A stretch of 64,000 nucleotides of DNA from contig CAWKHF010000001.1 of NCBI GenBank assembly GCA_963849325.1, forward strand, positions 384,001 to 448,000, read 5' to 3'. The stretch is from an uncultured Planctomycetota bacterium. Lineage in GTDB: Bacteria > Planctomycetota > Planctomycetia > Gemmatales > Gemmataceae. The notes under the pieces were generated by a model that saw only the letters and a list, made by a program, of their open reading frames with translations, ran no database searches and was not told the origin of the DNA. Shown piece after piece: positions 51,181-64,000 of the stretch. The position numbers were made by a program, and so were the translations under genes. Positions within the stretch are counted from its first letter, which is position 1, and every line of letters starts with the position of its first letter.

Positions 51181-51191
51181 GGAGTTTGCGT

Positions 51192-54100
51192 GCTTCAATG
51201 CGGCCACGGCCCGAAGACCGTGGAGAACTTCCACCCTGGGGAGAAATGAGAGGGGCAGTCCGAGCTTCAATGCGGCCACGGCCCGAAGACCGTGGAGAAC
51301 GAGCACTGGTTCCATCCGTCCTTGGGGAGGTCTAGCGCTTCAATGCGGCCACGGCCCGAAGACCGTGGAGAACCAAGGGCCTAGCCTTCCACGATCCGCA
51401 AGAGGTCTGGCTTCAATGCGGCCACGGCCCGAAGACCGTGGAGAACGATTATGGCTGCGGACGGGAGAGGCGTCGGCCCGTTAAGCTTCAATGCGGCCAC
51501 GGCCCGAAGACCGTGGAGAACATGTGGCAGAGCGGCTTGGTCTCGCACTCCATAAGTGGCTTCAATGCGGCCACGGCCCGAAGACCGTGGAGAACGCTGA
51601 GCGTCCATCACGATTGTCGGCGCTGTACACCGGTGGCTTCAATGCGGCCACGGCCCGAAGACCGTGGAGAACAGCGGAGTGAGAGCGGCTGCCATCGTGG
51701 CCGGCGATCGCTTCAATGCGGCCACGGCCCGAAGACCGTGGAGAACCGTCTTTGAGCTGCTCTCCTCGCGGACATGACGTGCTTCAATGCGGCCACGGCC
51801 CGAAGACCGTGGAGAACGCCACATGACGACTTTTTGCTGCGTAGTCTTCAGTGCTTCAATGCGGCCACGGCCCGAAGACCGTGGAGAACGACCTACAACG
51901 CGACGACGATGGAATTCGGTCAGTGCAGCTTCAATGCGGCCACGGCCCGAAGACCGTGGAGAACAAGACCGCCGAGGACGGACTCGGCTGGAGCAAGAGG
52001 GCTTCAATGCGGCCACGGCCCGAAGACCGTGGAGAACGAAAGGAAGTCCCACGGCGCATGACGCAACCCACGAAGCTTCAATGCGGCCACGGCCCGAAGA
52101 CCGTGGAGAACCGGCTATCCGAGGAGGACCTACCTCTGGAGCCGATGGCTTCAATGCGGCCACGGCCCGAAGACCGTGGAGAACCTCACGACGAGAGAGG
52201 AGCTTGCCCCAGGACATCGCCATGCTTCAATGCGGCCACGGCCCGAAGACCGTGGAGAACTTGATAGCTGGCACCCCATGCGTTCTTTCACGAGACTGGT
52301 GCTTCAATGCGGCCACGGCCCGAAGACCGTGGAGAACAACTCGCACACCTAGAATGATTCAGCCGAGGACGTGTGCTTCAATGCGGCCACGGCCCGAAGA
52401 CCGTGGAGAACCGGACCGAGTGACGGCACTCCTGATAACCTCGTCGGCGAGCTTCAATGCGGCCACGGCCCGAAGACCGTGGAGAACGGGGCTCACAAGC
52501 CACAAATCAGGCAGGCCATGTCCGCTTCAATGCGGCCACGGCCCGAAGACCGTGGAGAACCAACTGACTGGGCGTCGGGCGACTTCAAGACGCTGAGGGT
52601 GCTTCAATGCGGCCACGGCCCGAAGACCGTGGAGAACCCTAGCACTCGTCGCATCCACCTGGCACTGAGCTTCAATGCGGCCACGGCCCGAAGACCGTGG
52701 AGAACTATCTCGGCCGGCGTCGGCATTTCGCGACTGCCATGCTTCAATGCGGCCACGGCCCGAAGACCGTGGAGAACAAATCCTCGGAGGCAACATATAC
52801 ACTCGAACTGGATAGCTTCAATGCGGCCACGGCCCGAAGACCGTGGAGAACCCGGCCGTGGCGGCTAACCGTCGTCCGGCCAAGCTTCAATGCGGCCACG
52901 GCCCGAAGACCGTGGAGAACGGGAAGTGCGCCGAGTGAGGTTGTGCCCTCGACAAGGCTTCAATGCGGCCACGGCCCGAAGACCGTGGAGAACAGGCCAT
53001 CCTACGCTTCTTCCACCTTGGCCAAGGCAGCTTCAATGCGGCCACGGCCCGAAGACCGTGGAGAACCACGCTGACCGGCCTGTTCCGGCGGCGGGGATGA
53101 CAGCTTCGATGCGGCCACGGCCCGAAGACCGTGGAGAACGGCAAGAACTGTGATCCTCAAATAGCTTTGGCAAGAGCTTCAATGCGGCCACGGCCCGAAG
53201 ACCGTGGAGAACCCAGTATTGGATAACCTGAAGAGAGTTTGATTTCCCGCTTCAATGCGGCCACGGCCCGAAGACCGTGGAGAACCTTTAGCTGGCGGAG
53301 ACTCACTGTCCTGCCTCCGAAGCTTCAATGCGGCCACGGCCCGAAGACCGTGGAGAACGAGATTTCAGCTATCTCTTTTGCGTGCGCAGCTCCTGGCTTC
53401 AATGCGGCCACGGCCCGAAGACCGTGGAGAACTCTCCTCGGGCTGGAGCAGCCCTTGCCCACGCAGGCGCTTCAATGCGGCCACGGCCCGAAGACCGTGG
53501 AGAACCTATCACAAGGAAGCCGTCGTCACGCTCGGCAAGGAGCTTCAATGCGGCCACGGCCCGAAGACCGTGGAGAACTCCTCGCTCGCCGCCGTCGGCA
53601 ACACGGCCGACACGCTTCAATGCGGCCACGGCCCGAAGACCGTGGAGAACAGGTCAGTCGGAGAACCGCAAACGGCGCAGGGAACTTGGCTTCAATGCGG
53701 CCACGGCCCGAAGACCGTGGAGAACGCCGTCTCGGGCAGCGGATTTCCGCGAGAGCGTGGTGCTTCAATGCGGCCACGGCCCGAAGACCGTGGAGAACCT
53801 TCGCCGAAAAGGGCACAACCGCCTGGGCCGATTGGGCTTCAATGCGGCCACGGCCCGAAGACCGTGGAGAACGCCTGTGCTGAGGCCAGGCTGGAGAAAC
53901 CAATGAGAGCTTCAATGCGGCCACGGCCCGAAGACCGTGGAGAACGAGAAATGCGCCGAGTGCGGTTGTCCCCTCGACAAGGCTTCAATGCGGCCACGGC
54001 CCGAAGACCGTGGAGAACTGAAGATGGGCGTGGTCCTAAGTCGGCAAGGAAACATTGCTTCAATGCGGCCACGGCCCGAAGACCGTGGAGAACTCGTAGG

Positions 54101-57100
54101 TCATCGCTCCGTGAGGTCGAAAGACAGGGCGCTTCAATGCGGCCACGGCCCGAAGACCGTGGAGAACCTCAAAGATGTCGTCCGGTTTCGTTATAAGCGA
54201 TCGGAAGCTTCAATGCGGCCACGGCCCGAAGACCGTGGAGAACCTCGGTATCCCCATCCGGCGACATGCCGAAATAACGACGCTTCAATGCGGCCACGGC
54301 CCGAAGACCGTGGAGAACCACGCCGGACTGTGGCGGCATGGATGCCGCCACAAAAGCTTCAATGCGGCCACGGCCCGAAGACCGTGGAGAACAGTCTGCG
54401 GGAGACGCCCATCGCTCAGAAGCAAGCGGCTTCAATGCGGCCACGGCCCGAAGACCGTGGAGAACGACCGTGCGCATCGCCGATTGGGCCTACAAGGCGG
54501 GGAAGCTTCAATGCGGCCACGGCCCGAAGACCGTGGAGAACGGGTTGCCCTTTTCGTCAACGTACTCCAGCTTGCGACTCCCGCTTCAATGCGGCCACGG
54601 CCCGAAGACCGTGGAGAACACCTTGGCCTCGGCCTTAACCGCTTCGTCGCGCGCCCGAGCTTCAATGCGGCCACGGCCCGAAGACCGTGGAGAACTGACT
54701 CCGCTATTTTGACATCCTCCGCAGCGATTTCGCTTCAATGCGGCCACGGCCCGAAGACCGTGGAGAACCTTCGCCTCGAAGGTGCTCAACGACCTTCACC
54801 TGTTGCTTCAATGCGGCCACGGCCCGAAGACCGTGGAGAACGTGACGTGGACTGCGGGACCGATGGGCTGGGCATTGCTTCAATGCGGCCACGGCCCGAA
54901 GACCGTGGAGAACACGCTCGGCGTCCTACCTGGACGACGACGCCTGGCTTCAATGCGGCCACGGCCCGAAGACCGTGGAGAACATCGACCAAGACGCTTG
55001 GTACGACTGGGACGAGCTGCTTCAATGCGGCCACGGCCCGAAGACCGTGGAGAACACAGCCGCAGGCGCCGGCGCCGACGCCACCGGAGCTTCAATGCGG
55101 CCACGGCCCGAAGACCGTGGAGAACGGTCGGTGTCGCCGGCCGCATGGCGGGCCTTCATTGCGCTTCAATGCGGCCACGGCCCGAAGACCGTGGAGAACC
55201 CGGAAATCCTCGTCGCCACGGAAACGGCGATGGCTTCAATGCGGCCACGGCCCGAAGACCGTGGAGAACCATATCTAAGAATCGTAACCGCACGGGCGGA
55301 GCCGGCGGCTTCAATGCGGCCACGGCCCGAAGACCGTGGAGAACCCGCCTACGTCGTCCTGCATCCGCCGGCTCGAGACGGTGCTTCAATGCGGCCACGG
55401 CCCGAAGACCGTGGAGAACCGCCGGGCCGAAGTCGCTCCGTCTGGAGAGGATCGCTTCAATGCGGCCACGGCCCGAAGACCGTGGAGAACAATCGTTGTA
55501 CGCTCCGCCATGATTATCCGAGCAAGCGCTTCAATGCGGCCACGGCCCGAAGACCGTGGAGAACCGAGTATCGGTTGTTGGAAAGACAGTCAGGCAACAA
55601 GCTTCAATGCGGCCACGGCCCGAAGACCGTGGAGAACGATGCCGAGGCTGACGAACTAGCGACCTACATAATGCTTCAATGCGGCCACGGCCCGAAGACC
55701 GTGGAGAACGCCGCGCGGCTGCAGGGGGGCGAAGAAAAAGGAGCTTCAATGCGGCCACGGCCCGAAGACCGTGGAGAACGCGCTCGGGCAGGGTTCCACA
55801 GCCGCCGTGTCGATGCGCTTCAATGCGGCCACGGCCCGAAGACCGTGGAGAACCGGATGGAGACGTGATTGACTATGCCTTCATCCGTGGCTTCAATGCG
55901 GCCACGGCCCGAAGACCGTGGAGAACCCCTCCTCCGTCCCCAGAGGTCGCTTTTGTCGAGGCACGTCGGGCTTCAATGCGGCCACGGCCCGAAGACCGTG
56001 GAGAACGTCGAGTACCACCGATCCTACCGGGTCGGCGGCGAGCTGGGCTTCAATGCGGCCACGGCCGAAGACCGTGGAGAACCCGTGCACGGCGCTGGTG
56101 GATGCTCGATACCGTGCTGCTTCAATGCGGCCACGGCCCGAAGACCGTGGAGAACGATGACCAGCGGGCCATCGTCCGCATGGCCCTCGACGCCGCTTCA
56201 ATGCGGCCACGGCCCGAAGACCGTGGAGAACCCGTCTTGCATTCGAGAATCCGCTCCTCGCCGTGCTTCAATGCGGCCACGGCCCGAAGACCGTGGAGAA
56301 CGCAACCCGGAAATAATCCTACTCAGCCATCTCCGAAGCTTCAATGCGGCCACGGCCCGAAGACCGTGGAGAACTCTACTGTGGGGCGGATGGTGGTGGC
56401 ATACGCACAGTGGCTTCAATGCGGCCACGGCCCGAAGACCGTGGAGAACCCTACGCCCGCACAACCCCAAAGGAAGAGACAGGACATGCTTCAATGCGGC
56501 CACGGCCCGAAGACCGTGGAGAACATGGCGGCGGTCGGAGGGAATGGCGGCGGCCCTCGGCTTCAATGCGGCCACGGCCCGAAGACCGTGGAGAACCACC
56601 CTCTCTTCGTCCGCACCTCCGATCAAAGAAAATGCTTCAATGCGGCCACGGCCCGAAGACCGTGGAGAACTGCTCACCACCGGGGCCACGTTGACGCCCG
56701 CGACGTGCTTCAATGCGGCCACGGCCCGAAGACCGTGGAGAACCCGAGCATGTAAAAAGAGCGGGGTAACGCATGGACTCGATGCTTCAATGCGGCCACG
56801 GCCCGAAGACCGTGGAGAACCGCCGACGGCGAGTTGCCCGAGCCGAAGGACGACACGCTTCAATGCGGCCACGGCCCGAAGACCGTGGAGAACCTGAGCC
56901 GCACGCATCGGCAACCGCTTTTCGGCATGCTTCAATGCGGCCACGGCCCGAAGACCGTGGAGAACCACATCTTCGCATCCGCCCGCGCACTCCGCGCGAG
57001 CTTCAATGCGGCCACGGCCCGAAGACCGTGGAGAACCAGCCGAACCGCGCAGACTCGATCTCAGGCTCTCCGCTTCAATGCGGCCACGGCCCGAAGACCG

Positions 57101-60100
57101 TGGAGAACCATCATCCAGGCCGGCAGGCCGCGCAGGTAATGCGGCTTCAATGCGGCCACGGCCCGAAGACCGTGGAGAACGCATCCGTGGCAATGCGAAC
57201 ATGCCGAGGTCCACTCGCTTCAATGCGGCCACGGCCCGAAGACCGTGGAGAACCAGGACTTGACGCGCCGATTTCGTGCTGACGCCGCTTCAATGCGGCC
57301 ACGGCCCGAAGCCGTGGAGAACGACCTCGCCTTCATGTCTCTGAGCGTCGGCGAGAGAGGCTTCAATGCGGCCACGGCCCGAAGACCGTGGAGAACGCCT
57401 GCCGGTGGTGCCGTTTGCGGAGCCGCGAAAAGCTTCAATGCGGCCACGGCCCGAAGACCGTGGAGAACTACGAAATCATCACGGGCCGCGACGTGGAGAA
57501 CAAGGCTTCAATGCGGCCACGGCCCGAAGACCGTGGAGAACTCATCGCGGCGGGCGAGTTCGCCGCTACGCCGCGCTTCAATGCGGCCACGGCCCGAAGA
57601 CCGTGGAGAACCGGAATCGGCCGACGTGCTCGCGTGTGCGCCTCGAGCTTCAATGCGGCCACGGCCCGAAGACCGTGGAGAACTGGGCCACGAACCCGGA
57701 CTCTTGACGCCGCAGGAAGGCTTCAATGCGGCCACGGCCCGAAGACCGTGGAGAACGCGACTGGCGGCGACAGGTGAGACGACGGAGATGAGGAGCTTCA
57801 ATGCGGCCACGGCCCGAAGACCGTGGAGAACCCGGCGTCGCCGTCACCACGCGTACGCCGCAAAGAGCTTCAATGCGGCCACGGCCCGAAGACCGTGGAG
57901 AACCTCCGGCTCCGGCTCCGGGGCCGTCGCCGACTGGAGCTTCAATGCGGCCACGGCCCGAAGACCGTGGAGAACTCTACGTCGGATTTGCAGTCAAGGA
58001 CGAAGCCAGGGCTTCGATGCGGCCACGGCCCGAAGACCGTGGAGAACGAAAACGCCACGCTGCTCTTTGGCACGGCCTTGAGCTTCAATGCGGCCACGGC
58101 GAAGCCGTGGAGAACTTCTAGGAATCGGCCTGAAGCCGTGCAGCGATCGGGCTTCAATGCGGCCACGGCCGAAGACGCCGTGGAGAACGTGCCATCACGG
58201 CCTTGTTGCGCGAGGCCGTGGCTTCAATGCGGCCACGGCCGAAGCCGTGGAGAACCCGCCGTGCCGAGGAGCTGGCCCAGCTGGACGCCACGCTTCAATG
58301 CGGCCACGGCCCGAAGACCGTGGAGAACCGCCACCCCGCCGGGCGGAGGCCGTATCCGACGAAGCTTCAATGCGGCCACGGCCCGAAGACCGTGGAGAAC
58401 CCGAGGACTCGGCCCCCTGACGGTCCCCGCCGACGTGGCTTCAATGCGGCCACGGCCGAAGACCGTGGAGAACATGATCCTCCGATTCGCGGATACCCCG
58501 TACGGTAGAGCTTCAATGCGGCCACGGCCCGAAGACCGTGGAGAACCTCTTCCTTTGTGCCGGTGTCCGCTCTGCCGAAGTGAGCTTCAATGCGGCCACG
58601 GCCCGAAGACCGTGGAGAACATTACGTCCGCCAGGCCATGCGGCAGGTCTGGGTGTCTTGGATCCGGCCACGGCCCGAAGACCGTGGAGAACTGCAGGTG
58701 ATGCTCTGGGGTTGCTGCGCCGGGACAAGCACTTCAATGCGGCCACGGCCCGAAGACCGTCGAGAACATCGGATGAGACTCCATGTCACTAGCCCGCGAT
58801 GTGCTTCAATGCGGCCACGGCCCAAAGACCGTGGAGAACAGCGGCCAGGCTATGGGAGCAGATGACGCGAGAACGAGCTGGATGCGGCCACGGCCCGAAG
58901 ACCGTGGAGAACAGCACGACTTCAACGATCAAGTGTTAGCGGGGTTGTGGCTTCAATGCGGCCACGGCCCGAAGACCGTGGAGAACTATGTTCGATGGCT
59001 TTCACGACCGTATGGACTGGCTCGGCTTCAATCCGGCCACGGCCCGAAGACCGTGGAGAACTCGTCCGGTTCCTGCCTTCAGTGGCCTTGCTCCGCTTGG
59101 CTTCAATGCGGCCACGGCCCGAAGACCGTGGAGAACGGTGAAGCCGACGACTGGCCCAGCCACTTGATGACGCTTCAATGCGGCCACGGCCCGAAGACCG
59201 TGGAGAACGAGGCCGTACAAATCCGTTTGGGGCGGCGGTGTCAGGCTTCAATGCGGCCACGGCCCGAAACCGTGGAGAACTCGCCTTCGAGCAAGTAGAG
59301 GAGCACATGTCACAGCTTCAATGCGGCCACGGCCCGAAGACCGTGGAGAACGCAGTATATCGGATTTTTTCTGTGACAGACTATTAACGCTTCAATGCGG
59401 CCACGGCCCGAAGACCGTGGAGAACCCATCCATGCCGACCGGGAATAGCCGACTGGTGCTGAAGCTTCAATGCGGCCACGGCCCGAAGACCGTGGAGAAC
59501 ACCAGCCTCACCATCAAGCTGTGCGACAACAAGAAACCGCTTCAATGCGGCCACGGCCCGAAGACCGTGGAGAACCAACCAGCAAGCCGCCGAGCAAGCC
59601 AACCCCTATGCATTCAATGCGGCCACGGCCCGAAGACCGTGGAGAACATTATGAGGAGCGTGCCACCACTTTCCCCCAGCACGCTTCAATGCGGCCACGG
59701 CCCGAAGACCGTGGAGAACCCTCAGTCATTTTCTCTATCCTCTCGACTATGGTTGGCTTCAATGCGGCCACGGCCCGAAGACCGTGGAGAACGCGGCATG
59801 GCGGCGAAGAAGCAAGCAGCGCAGCGCGGAGCTTCAATGCGGCCACGGCCCGAAGACCGTGGAGAACCTCGACGACCTTGCCGGCGAGGGCCACACCTGG
59901 GTGCTTCAATGCGGCCACGGCCCGAAGACCGTGGAGAACATGCCATGAGGGACGAATCCATCTGGGAACACCTGCTGCTTCAATGCGGCCACGGCCCGAA
60001 GACCGTGGAGAACTTACGAGTGGATCATCTCCAAGCCCGAAACGGTGATGCTTCGATGCGGCCACGGCCCGAAGACCGTGGAGAACCCTCAGCACCAGAC

Positions 60101-60162
60101 GCCGAGAGCTTCCGCGTGCTCTCGGGCTTCAATGCGGCCACGGCCCGAAGACCGTGGAGAAC
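51192..60162 (-). CRISPR. CRISPR array, block 1 (about 120-125 repeats); type I-G/I-U-like repeat
   Basis: 37-bp repeat, minus strand GTTCTCCACGGTCTTCGGGCCGTGGCCGCATTGAAGC with a CCACGG/CCGTGG stem; spacers about 31-42 bp; count estimated from length at about 73.5 bp per unit; orientation inferred from the 3' ATTGAAGC. Confidence 0.98.
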
Positions 60163-60354
60163 ACGGCTCGACGAGTTCGGCCGGATGCAAGCCCCAGGAA
60201 CTTCCTCGGAAGGTGACGCGACGGTGACGTAGCTCCCTGCTGCGATGGGCCTCCGCCGCGCGCACCGTCTCCGCTCCCTTCCGCCCTTCGCCCTTGTCCT
60301 CTCCGCTGTTTCCGTCTCACCTCACTGTCAATGACTGCCAACGCCAACGCGAAT

Positions 60355-61835
60355 CTAGGTCACCGCCGGCATCGGCGGCGCCTCCACCTTCCGCAGCTCG
60401 AAGCCCAGCTCCATCGCACGACGACGCAACTGCTTCTCCAGACGCGCCCGCACCTGCTCGGCGTAGACCGCCTCCGTTTGCTTGACGTAGGCCATGCCGT
60501 AACGCACCAAGTGGTACACGATCCGCGCCAGCTTGTGCGCCGTCGCCGTGATCGCCTTGGGCGCACCCAGACGCGAACGCTGACGACGCAGATAGGCTCC
60601 CAAATAGCTCTTGCTCCGCATCAGACTCCAGGCCGCCAAACACAACGTCCGCGCCGCACGCCCCTTGCCCTTACGCGTCGCGCTGGACTTGACCTTACCC
60701 CCGGTCTTGTGCCAGTTGGGGCACAGCCCCAGCCAGCAGGTGAACTGCTTGACCGTCGGCCATTTCGTGAAGTCCCAACCCAGCTCACTGACCAACGTCA
60801 ACGCATGCACCTCGTCAATGCCTTCGATCGCCGTCAGGTCTACGCCCGTGGCCAAGTACAACGCCTGGCGCACGTCAAAGCGTGGGTCGTGCGGCTTGCG
60901 GCCACGCATGCGGGGCTTGGGCGGCAGTGGGGGCAACGCGGTCTGCCGACGCATGCTCCGCAGGTGGGCGTCGATGGCTTCGTCCAGCTCACCGATCACC
61001 TCCTGATACTTCTCCCACAAGGTCAGGCAACAGCGCAGCTCGGTTATATGCTCGGGGCGATAGCGGCCATCCAACGCCTGGGCGATGTCCGCAACGCTGT
61101 GCCGGCAGCGGCGGTCGCGCAGCCTGGCCAGTTGCTGCGGGTCGCGTTGGCCGGCGAGGATGGCCCGGATGATCTTTAGCCCCGTTACGCCGGTGACGTC
61201 GCCCAGCACGCCGGTCAGCTTGAGGTTCATCAGTTGCAGCGCCTTCTGCATCCTCTGGATGTGCTGGCCGGACAGGCGGACCAGGTTCGTGCGTTGGCGG
61301 ACGTAGTCACGCAGGGTCTGGGTGGCCTCGTCGGGCTGGAAGATGGCCGGCAACAGGCCGTGCTTGTGCAGGCGTTGAATCCACTGGCAGTCACGCTTGT
61401 CGGTCTTGGGCCGGCCCTTGATCTGGCGGGCAAACTGCGGTGCGGTCATCACCACCACGAAGCCGGCTTCCAGCAGAGTCAAAAACAGGACGTGGGCGTA
61501 GACGCCGGTGGCCTCCACGGCCACGGTGGTGACGCCGCATTGGCGTAGCCAGGCGACCAATTGCCGCAGCCCGGCGGTATGAGCGGGAACGCGCGGACGG
61601 CGTTGCTGTCGTCGGGGGTGGATTCGACGCAGGCCCAGTGGCTGACGTCGCCAGCGTCGATGCCGGCGGCGTGAGCATGCTGCACCGGCATCGAGACCAG
61701 CTTGGCGCACTCCTGGGCGTCACGTCGGGTCTTTTCAGCGTGGCGGGCGGCGCGGCGTAGTTCGTTGGCGGTCGCGGCCACCGATGGCGTTTGCGGTTTA
61801 CGGGCGTCGCGTGGTGGGGTCTTGCAGTCGGACAC
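60355..61835 (-). CDS. IS110-family DEDD recombinase/transposase (one indel near 61586)
   Basis: GGAGG RBS plus GTG; AGID, VEATG and KTDKRD (DEDD); WLGLCP...TGGK; KAITATAHKLAR. Confidence 0.93.
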
Positions 61836-61869
61836 GGGAGCCTCCACAATAGGGGGATTGGGGAACCAG

Positions 61870-62058
61870 GGTGTCCGGTGGGGGAGTCGGCACGGGCACC
61901 AGCCGTCCCAACGGGATCGACCGCGACGGCGTTGAAGGCCGTAGGCGGTCGTCACCAAACGAGTGGGCCGAAAATCGCTCCCCGGTCCAGTCGAACCAGC
62001 GGGCGGAGCGCAAAGCCTCTCAGCACCAGAAGCATGTCGGACATCGACACCGGACACC
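61870..62058 (-). ncRNA. Candidate IS110 bridge RNA
   Basis: 11-bp closing stem GGTGTCCGGTG/CACCGGACACC enclosing two modules of the form guide-TGGTG-hairpin-CCCG-guide, directly upstream of the transposase. Confidence 0.65.
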
Positions 62059-62158
62059 GGAGGTAGGATAAGCGAGTCTCGCCCCAAGTTCCTGGCATTG
62101 TGGTGCAGGGGAACCCTGCGAGGATGCGAACCAGGCGCAGGGCAGGCCGAGCTGCAAG

Positions 62159-64000
62159 GCTTCAATGCGGCCACGGCCCGAAGACCGTGGAGAACGCAGG
62201 CCAAGTCTGGCGTCGGACTGGCCCTGCCGAATAGCTGGCTTCAATGCGGCCACGGCCCGAAGACCGTGGAGAACTATTGGCGCGTTGTGTATCCCGAGGC
62301 GTCAATGTGAGCTTCAATGCGGCCACGGCCCGAAGACCGTGGAGAACTTCACCCTGGCATTCAGCAGTGCCGTAGGGATGGAAGCTTCAATGCGGCCACG
62401 GCCCGAAGACCGTGGAGAACCGTGGGTGCCGGTCTACACGAGCTTCTTCCAGGACCAGCTTCAATGCGGCCACGGCCCGAAGACCGTGGAGAACGGGGAA
62501 CTTCAACATCAACCCCGCCGGGGGAGCAGGGGCTTCAATGCGGCCACGGCCCGAAGACCGTGGAGAACCCTCCCGGTAGATCGCATCCAAAACGCCCACG
62601 ACAAAGCTTCAATGCGGCCACGGCCCGAAGACCGTGGAGAACGTGGTGCCGTCCTTCTTGGACAACTTGGTAACGGTAGCTTCAATGCGGCCACGGCCCG
62701 AAGACCGTGGAGAACCGGGGCCATGAACAATGAAATTCAAGCCTTCATGCAGCTTCAATGCGGCCACGGCCCGAAGACCGTGGAGAACACGATTGCAGTT
62801 AATTTGGACATCCATTGGCAAAACCGCTTCAATGCGGCCACGGCCCGAAGACCGTGGAGAACTAGGCCGTGAAGCGAGCCGGCCAGTATTCCACGAAGCC
62901 GCTTCAATGCGGCCACGGCCCGAAGACCGTGGAGAACCATCGTTGGCGGCTCCAAGAGGTGGCGTGAAGCGCTGCTTCAATGCGGCCACGGCCCGAAGAC
63001 CGTGGAGAACAACGACCTTCTCCGCCTTCGTGCAGCGCAGGCCGTCTGCTTCAATGCGGCCACGGCCCGAAGACCGTGGAGAACCCCACGCCTCCTCGGT
63101 GTCCTCCTCGCCGAGCAGGTGGCTTCAATGCGGCCACGGCCCGAAGACCGTGGAGAACACCCCACATCGAGGTTAACTGCCTTCCCGTTGTGGGCTTCAA
63201 TGCGGCCACGGCCCGAAGACCGTGGAGAACACGAGCCGGACCAAGGTGATCCCCGGTCTGGACCAGGTGCTTCAATGCGGCCACGGCCCGAAGACCGTGG
63301 AGAACGTACAATCGCCCAGGCGCGACTTCGTTCCGGATCGCAGCTTCAATGCGGCCACGGCCCGAAGACCGTGGAGAACTCCACAGGCGGCCCGTCCTCC
63401 GGCTGTCCGATCCAGGCGCTTCAATGCGGCCACGGCCCGAAGACCGTGGAGAACCGCTGCCCCGTCATCGTGACGTAGCGCTTGTCGTCGTGCTTCAATG
63501 CGGCCACGGCCCGAAGACCGTGGAGAACCGCCGGGTCCGGGGTTGGCGCAGGCGGCGAGGAACCGGGGGCTTCAATGCGGCCACGGCCCGAAGACCGTGG
63601 AGAACTCCTTGTGGACACCAATTGCAGAGAGCCGCCGCGCAGCGCGCTTCAATGCGGCCACGGCCCGAAGACCGTGGAGAACACGGACCTGAAGCAATTC
63701 GTGGAGGTCTGGCAAACGGGCTTCAATGCGGCCACGGCCCGAAGACCGTGGAGAACCACGCAATGCCAAGGGCAAGATCGATCCCGTGCCTATGCTTCAA
63801 TGCGGCCACGGCCCGAAGACCGTGGAGAACCCCGGAAAAATGGCGTGCGGCTCTCCGGGAGTAATGCTTCAATGCGGCCACGGCCCGAAGACCGTGGAGA
63901 ACCGTGGAAACGTGGCCGTACTGCGAACGGCTCCGGCCGCTTCAATGCGGCCACGGCCCGAAGACCGTGGAGAACGATAGAGGGCGTGCTCGCCACACTG
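62159..64000 (-). CRISPR. CRISPR array, block 2 (25 repeats; continues past the window end)
   Basis: Same 37-bp repeat, all copies apparently consensus; last repeat 63939-63975 followed by a partial spacer. Confidence 0.98.

Follow-up and report, generated by a model that had tools for sequence, protein, structure and literature searches.

The closest described systems to the locus analysed here are found in the IS110 family, whose RNA-guided recombination has been known in principle since 2024. In IS621, going by those portions of the two reports that are drawn upon here, the two loops of the RNA read the target and the donor, with the right guides lying on the 3′ side, where they pair with the top strand, and the left guides (LTG and LDG) lying on the 5′ strands (PMC11208160, PMC11208158). 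In the seekRNAs of the IS1111 elements ISEc11, ISPa11 and ISKpn4, the bottom-strand match is positioned 3′ of the top-strand match; IS1111-type elements possess sub-terminal inverted repeats, and their RNA is usually located downstream of the gene (PMC11187229, likewise cited from part of its text). The criterion used here for such elements is sub-terminal inverted repeats of 7–17 bp, with extensions of about 7 bp on the left and 3 bp on the right. Within the family, Durrant et al. note 'considerable mechanistic diversity' in the part of their report cited here (PMC11208160).

We interpret a region of the window (the whole stretch of 64,000 nt that was analysed) as the bridge (seek) RNA gene of a Gemmataceae IS110-family element, and put the probability of this reading at roughly 80%. 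The lineage does not represent a new principle, and may already be contained in the supplementary catalogues of predicted bridge RNAs of PMC11208160. What it offers is a known principle at work in a soil lineage that is very abundant and uncharacterised, together with a natural experiment, since several classes of guide occur, each beside flanks of its own.

An insertion sequence that splits a CRISPR array

A CRISPR array with 148 copies of a 37-nt repeat (GCTTCAATGCGGCCACGGCCCGAAGACCGTGGAGAAC) occupies window positions 51186–64000 and runs past the window end. Its spacers are 31–43 nt long, lengths which include 6 nt per spacer absorbed by the fuzzy repeat match. A single repeat-to-repeat interval (60163–62158) has a length of 1,996 nt and contains an insertion sequence on the minus strand, by which the array of this host is split. 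From the reading of the array, the repeat to the left of the insertion is at 60126–60162 and that to the right at 62159–62195, both on the plus strand; all features described below are on the minus strand.

The element proper covers 60192–62126 (1,935 bp), with its left end (LE) at 62126 and its right end (RE) at 60192, as delimited by a sister copy, empty sites and homologues. This second copy in the same genome (contig C5, locus L002) has window positions 62138 to 60191 in common with the first. As it is present in the sister copy, CGAACCAG (62127–62134) was considered as element DNA, an assignment that is ruled out by natural empty sites, which read ..GCGCCTGGTTCGGC. According to uninterrupted target sites and about 25 homologues, the boundaries lie between TT-CG and CATCC on the left and between CTGGGG and CG on the right. 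The junctions of L002 read TT-CG-[IS]-CG-GCC and the corresponding empty site TTCGGCC, so that there is no target-site duplication and the same short core is found at both ends. With a target ..CTGGTT-CG-GC and a donor junction ..CCTGGGG-C(N)-RD, the crossover falls at C(G); the second core base may be G, A, C or T at the left junction, and the right junction is nearly always CG.

The right end reads GAAGTTCCTGGGG, followed by CG-GC. In an alignment of 34 right ends, GTTCCTGG is followed by GG in 27 rows, about 22 of which continue with CGGC or CGGT; the remaining rows come from truncated contigs or from elements that are more distantly related. The RE terminus at 60191–60203 consists of the right sub-terminal inverted repeat AAGTTCCTGG, a 2-nt extension (GG) which separates it from the right tip, and the core C, and on the basis of this alignment is proposed to be the left donor (LD). 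The reverse complement of AAGTTCCTGG, the 10-bp left sub-terminal inverted repeat CCAGGAACTT (62086–62095), lies about 31 nt inside the left end; all 25 of 25 homologues have an unchanged GGAACT, and the bases 3′ of ACTT are variable among them. Fold and homologue alignment place a 5′ stem-loop (GCAGGG/CCCTGC) at the LE terminus (62105–62119), and in homologues this stem is exchanged for other complementary pairs, such as GCGGCG/CGCCGC and CCAGCA/TGCTGG. The non-coding part at the right end is about 165 nt long and is weakly conserved except for its tip.

The transposase gene (60355–61835, from Pfam matches and comparison of copies) begins with a GTG codon at 61835–61833, preceded by GGAGG. 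The window ORF matches the Pfam domains DEDD_Tnp_IS110 (PF01548, 67.4 bits) and Transposase_20 (PF02371, 54.7 bits). An intact orthologue from a genome of the same genus (L006) scores 268.7 bits on the NCBIfam model NF033542, 'IS110 family RNA-guided transposase' (cut-off 140), and shows a distant match (E about 1e-9) to the IS621 and ISCro4 chains. The element is thus an IS110-family insertion sequence, of a kind common in Gemmataceae. As to the abundance of the soil lineage, E <= 1e-10 is reached by 7,820 of 8,000 candidates that were scored, with identities of 77–100% among the best 120. Relative to L002, the window gene is broken by a 1-nt deletion near 61588, and L002 carries a different 1-nt insertion at element position 1436; the two copies also differ by 6 substitutions and by one indel in the right end. 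Both frameshifts may mark pseudogenes or may be assembly indels. The window copy is consequently not the new programmable recombinase pair that the original prediction had seen in it, and tool building would have to start from the intact orthologues that are present in relatives.

The right junction of the window copy is aberrant. Eight extra bases (TTGCATCC, 60183–60190), absent from the sister copy and from homologues, separate the C and the G of the core (CTGGGG-C-TTGCATCC-G-GCC), and these are similar to TT(C)GCATCC, the left junction. Between the two CRISPR repeats, the DNA that is not part of the element amounts to 61 nt, which is over-long for one spacer; both flanks start CTTGCA..CGGCC, and a search of the own genome for a second copy of either flank found none.

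L002 and most homologues from other Gemmataceae genera interrupt a palindromic repeat after ..TGGTT-C(G). This repeat is an imperfect palindrome of about 100 nt with some 25–30 copies in the own genome (e.g. L131, 195–325), beginning with GCCGAAC and ending with the complementary ..GCCGGTCTGCTGCAGCGnnTGGTTCGGC (layout GCCGAAC...CTCAGCAGCC...GGTCTGCTGCAGCG..TGGTTCGGC). It folds as a long hairpin (DNA fold z = -3.3), is common to many Gemmataceae genera, and two copies of it matched no Rfam family at E <= 1. Uninterrupted target sites end ..GCGCCTGGTT-CG-GC, which is the 3′ end of the repeat. Against 84 CTGGTTCGGC sites in the own genome there are no more than 2 element copies, so these 10 nt cannot be the entire specificity. 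The right target (RT) starts with GC even at sites outside the repeat (L149, L007, L066, L062, L109), which implies that something reads the right half-site.

The same palindromic repeat is also occupied by another IS110-type element, unrelated to the first (L133, 558–1607; a DEDD-like ORF of 349 aa, with ATACTCATGAAGGCTCTTGAAGCAC as left end), at a site 4 nt upstream of that of the present element, after ..CCTGG, at no fewer than three loci (the C12:879953 region, C7:540415 and C5:954887). The palindromic repeat is a natural landing pad for at least two IS110 lineages.

A conserved, probable RNA structure upstream of the transposase gene

The long left end contains a structured region about 35 nt upstream of the GTG start, which the original prediction had recognised as bridge-RNA-like, with an outer stem enclosing two modules. 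In the window, the outer stem is formed by GGTGTCCGGTG (62058–62048) and CACCGGACACC (61880–61870), and the modules read GACATGCTTC-TGGTG-hairpin-CCCG-CTGGTTCGAC and CCCACTCGTT-TGGTG-hairpin-CCCG-TTGGGACGGC on the minus strand. A consensus fold was computed with RNAalifold from an alignment of 25 homologues, which represent at least 15 genera and were compared between the conserved GCCAGGAACTT and the point where the outer stem ends. According to this fold and to pair counts, the core ncRNA occupies 61871–62057, with an outer stem of 10 bp (62057–62048 with 61880–61871) around the two internal-loop modules. In module 1, a lower stem is followed by an internal loop with 9 nt in its 5′ strand and 10 nt in its 3′ strand, and UGG(U)GC/GCCCG forms the upper stem, which closes a hairpin. 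Module 2 has a lower stem CGGCC/GGCUG, loop strands of 8 and 7 nt, and an upper stem UGGUGAC/G.AUCCCG with a variable hairpin. There is also a long-range helix between GGGGAGCG and CG.ACUCCCC.

This consensus structure consists of 6 helices with 46 pairs, and 94.6% of the cells of the 25-homologue alignment are paired. A compensatory change is found in 22 of the 46 pairs, compared with 10.0 +/- 1.7 in shuffled alignments (none of 500 reaches this value) and with 8–12 pairs in controls where the partners had been slid by 1–3 columns. Conserved G-U pairs (for instance 78/128, 88/117, 148/222 and 160/211) would be A-C on the plus strand, which assigns the fold to the transposase-sense transcript. 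Covariation of the type expected for an RNA structure is thus observed, and the outer stem and both modules of the original prediction are borne out; together with the domains of the transposase, they fit a bridge-RNA-like ncRNA of an IS110-family element. The single-sequence fold by itself is unremarkable (z = -1.9).

By homology with IS621, ISEc21 and ISEc11, the region is probably transcribed. Rfam returned nothing for window positions 59500–63000 at E <= 1, and a sigma-70 promoter scan of 61700–62200 found 0 sites. GGAACTT..TATCCTA was considered as a -35/-10 pair and dropped, as its spacing ranges from about 5 to about 31 nt among homologues; TATCCTA is conserved directly upstream of the outer stem. 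None of the sequencing runs listed is recorded as RNA. A 263-nt contig from a soil library labelled RNA-Seq covers 61870–62129 with 9 differences, but is given no weight here, as its RNA nature is a guess and transcript ends are not revealed by contigs. Twenty soil runs contain only a fraction of about 0.1 of the words, and four of them, when compared, show related copies that are 90–99% alike and do not come from the organism of the window.

Several related arrangements were encountered. A soil-metagenome contig (run X2) joins position 60220 to 62091, combining the last 29 nt or so of the RE with about the first 36 nt of the LE of a related element, and may be a miniature derivative or a remnant. 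In a sister element of 68% identity in the own genome (L004, C4:316608-320656), the non-coding DNA upstream is much shorter and contains just one UGGUG...CCCG module, which reads CATTCG-TGGTG-hairpin-CCCG-TTCGGAAGTT; this element adjoins GCCGAAC, the 5′ start of the same palindromic repeat. The 19-nt motif of loop 2 was also met outside the planctomycetes, in contigs assigned to Dehalococcoidia, Selenomonadales, Sphingomonas and others (L059, L061, L077, L084, L107, L111), and these records gave no ncRNA match at E <= 1e-5. Several short contigs with a full match that are binned to unrelated phyla (Mycobacteriaceae, Gemmatimonadota, Dormiibacterota) look like mis-binning of a multi-copy element.

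Internal loops and the DNA at the element ends

In the following, a and b designate the 5′ and 3′ strands of loop 1, and c and d those of loop 2. Loop a is ACATGCTTC (62029–62037, from the consensus fold) and loop b corresponds to CTGGTTCGAC (61990–61999), within which CTGGTTCG equals the left flank of the element plus the crossover C(G). The left target flank with the core (CTGGTT-CG, 62127–62134, from the sequence and from empty sites) is identical to loop b in 8 of 8 positions, read from 62134 to 62127. Since loop b has the same sense as the left target (LT) and core, the RNA would pair with the bottom strand. As an isolated 8-mer, CTGGTTCG carries little weight: it occurs 5 times in the window with 3.0 expected, and 16 of 100 shuffles reach 5. 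Its position at the element boundary, together with covariation with the flanks of homologues, is far beyond chance.

In 54 entries, the mean identity between loop b and LT plus core is 6.43 of 8, compared with 5.82 +/- 0.07 after permutation (0 of 5000 reach it), although such shuffle counts overstate the significance and should not be taken as probabilities, because related sequences are not independent. The signal forms a same-sense diagonal at LT positions -5, -4, -2 and -1 (z = 4.3–7.7). Mutual information on the 54 entries was too noisy. When the set was enlarged by 120 metagenome contigs, 253 loci were obtained, corresponding to 151 distinct element/site entries with at least 70 nt of upstream sequence. 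Among entries with a minority guide, the own hexamer is present in the junction window in 31 of 39, and the majority hexamer in 4 of 39. The individual classes are GGGTTC (12 of 17), TTGTTC (8 of 8), TGGGGC (7 of 7), TTGGTC (2 of 2), TCGTTC and CGGTTC (1 of 1 each), TAGTTC (0 of 2) and TGGGAC (0 of 1). The majority guide TGGTTC is accompanied by its own hexamer in 85 of 106 entries and is without it in 21. Two close relatives of the window element with the same left-end sequence (L149, L173) have CTTGGTCG as loop b and are inserted at two unrelated sites outside the repeat, both ending CTTGGT-CG. Exceptions to the correspondence between guide and flank are L040/L072 and L109 (guide TGGGTTCG adjoining TTGGTT), L221, L092, L179 and L134.

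The covariation between loop 1 and the flank is an observation, which answers the check on flanks of other insertions that accompanied the original prediction and upholds its proposal that module 1 reads target DNA on the spacer side. That loop b recognises the left half of the target by pairing with DNA is what we infer from homology with IS621, ISEc21 and ISEc11. The 5′ loop strands (ACATGCTTC, CACTCGTT) were compared column by column with LT, core, RD and RT, and show no antiparallel diagonal and no consistent partner. There are single-column leads only, namely a column of loop a that is complementary to the second core base in 31 of 54 entries, and a column of loop c versus LT-1.

We consider it improbable, if less so than the explanations that follow, that the xTGGnnCG motifs found in the target, both loops, the RE end and the LE interior are protein-binding DNA sites of the transposase instead of RNA guides, the conserved LE then being a protein-binding end. 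The motif does recur five times at the DNA level, and the 10-bp inverted repeat CCAGGAACTT / AAGTTCCTGG flanks the ends as it does in IS1111-type elements (PMC11187229, in the part cited). Compensatory pairs and conserved G-U pairs are, however, what an RNA fold of one strand would leave behind, and loop b shifts with the flank while the protein stays at least about 80% identical; the family model NF033542, moreover, is named for RNA-guided transposases.

An even smaller probability attaches to a cis-acting 5′ leader which would serve translation or stability of the transposase mRNA, the likeness to the flank arising because elements survive only beside the repeat. The structure does lie shortly upstream of the GTG start with its GGAGG, and most copies are in one palindromic repeat family. 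Leader function would not predict a base-for-base correspondence, and guide variants match sites outside the repeat (L149, L173, L143) as well as a second target class, CTGGGGC.

For loop 2, which has CACTCGTT (61958–61965, from the consensus fold) as its 5′ strand, the 3′ strand TTGGGAC plus G (61904–61911) is proposed to be the left-donor guide, based on 6/8 identity with the RE end CTGGGGCG. This strand (TTGGGACG) is nearly invariant in homologues and best fits the right end CTGGGG-CG, which is invariant too. Counting a U-G pair, 7 of 8 positions could pair, leaving one conserved A-C mismatch (A-for-G). As both partners are invariant, covariation is impossible, and the donor role is suggested by the 6/8 identity and by analogy. 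Variants of loop d (TTTGGAC, TTCGGGC, TTGCGAC, GCGAGAC) occur only in truncated copies without a recognisable RE. In one element (L106) the loop-2 string serves as the loop-1 guide, beside a flank ending CTGGGGC. Its position, the case of L106 and the analogy to IS621, ISEc21 and ISEc11 favour module 2 as the candidate donor loop, as originally predicted.

The donor site itself is probably another one than first proposed. Every string that had been quoted is at its place (CGAACCAG at 62127–62134, ATGC at 62124–62127 and 60185–60188, CGCCCCAA at 62080–62087, CTC at 62078–62080, GCCCCA at 60191–60196), including 11 contiguous bp at 62124–62134 and a 7/8 match at 62080–62087. The least probable reading of all is nevertheless that exact model, in which loop 2 would read 62078–62087 and loop 1 the left junction after integration, as LT-core-RD (CTGGTTCG plus ATGC). 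Homologues whose left end likewise starts with CAT (L007, L013/L056, L047) lack ATGC in loop a, and the supposed donor site is about 40 nt inside the element and not at a junction, overlaps the 3′ end of the left inverted repeat, matches TTGGGGCG (62087–62080) exactly in just 2 of the 25 homologues and has been lost by deletion from several. The conserved match is instead to the right end (60191–60198), which had been named in passing only.

For the bridge (seek) RNA that we favour, the following process is envisaged. A minus-strand transcript would form the outer stem around two pseudo-symmetric modules, each built from a lower stem and an internal loop, above which UGGUG(C/A)...(G/U)CCCG would form the upper stem with its hairpin cap. 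The 3′ strand of the first loop would form base pairs with left target and core on the bottom strand, and that of loop 2 (UUGGGACG) likewise with the right end CTGGGG-CG in its circular or junction form, and a DEDD/serine recombinase would swap strands at the common C(G), a chemistry presumed by homology with IS621, ISEc21 and ISEc11.

A second target class and relationship to known systems

All 7 elements that have TTGGGGCG as loop-1 guide are inserted after CTGGGGC; together with L106 (guide TTGGGACG) they lie directly after ..CCTGGGGC, and L102 (guide TTAGGACG) lies after ..CCTTGGAC. In L106, L101, L183 and others, the flank is the right end of another family member, so that these elements have gone into the right junction of a copy already resident there; at their own right junction, CG-GC is found once more. 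A resident right junction (CTGGGG-CG-GC) differs from the ordinary target (CTGGTT-CG-GC) in two bases.

Tandem duplications of the right tip (CTGGGG-CTGGGG-CG, or two to three copies of a 16–19-nt right end) are seen at the right junctions of L027, L011, L033, L075 and L081. They are possibly scars of repeated insertion or excision at the family's own right junction. One may speculate that they hint at abortive or half-site events, of a kind described for IS621 (bioRxiv 10.64898/2026.08.31.748434, in the part drawn upon here).

A tentative idea, to which we give well under an even chance, is that the bridge RNA is one-sided: it would read left halves only, by its 3′ loop strands, with the fixed CG-GC being recognised by protein or RNA structure, and a sub-lineage would have retargeted loop 1 to the family's own right junction (CTGGGG-CG-GC), leading to head-to-tail insertion. 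If true, this would account for the tandem right-end scars, and perhaps for the aberrant junction in the window. The guide classes make it testable what DNA strand each loop strand reads and by what means the right half-site is recognised.

The likeness to IS621 includes a recombinase with DEDD and Transposase_20 domains, an ncRNA that precedes the gene in a long left end, a 5′ stem-loop and, after it, a pseudo-symmetric pair of internal loops, of which the first would serve the target and the second the donor, and a palindromic repeat as natural target. Of the left and right guides that had been predicted, only those for the left halves (LT, LD) were placed, in both cases on 3′ loop strands, whereas in IS621 they are on 5′ strands; right guides were not found here. 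The core is C(G) as compared with CT in IS621, there is a 10-bp sub-terminal inverted repeat, and the transposase is larger (about 490 aa versus 326–341 aa), with a similarity of only E about 1e-9.

With ISPpu10, ISPpu9 and other REP-targeting IS110 elements, going by partial descriptions of these, the lineage shares the habit of inserting into a repeated extragenic palindrome, at one fixed position within it. It differs from them in its host phylum (Planctomycetota) and in the repeat and the guide.

Compared with IS1111, the RNA is upstream of the gene and not downstream as is usual there, the left inverted repeat is about 31 nt inside the end instead of following a left extension of 6–7 bp, and a top-strand match was not found. 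Shared with IS1111 seekRNAs are the 3′ position of the bottom-strand-matching segment within the RNA and a natural retargeting by guide change, and shared with IS1111 elements are the sub-terminal inverted repeats (here 10 bp) with a right extension of 2–3 bp. The lineage thus mixes the RNA placement of the IS110 group with a guide order and repeats that are IS1111-like.
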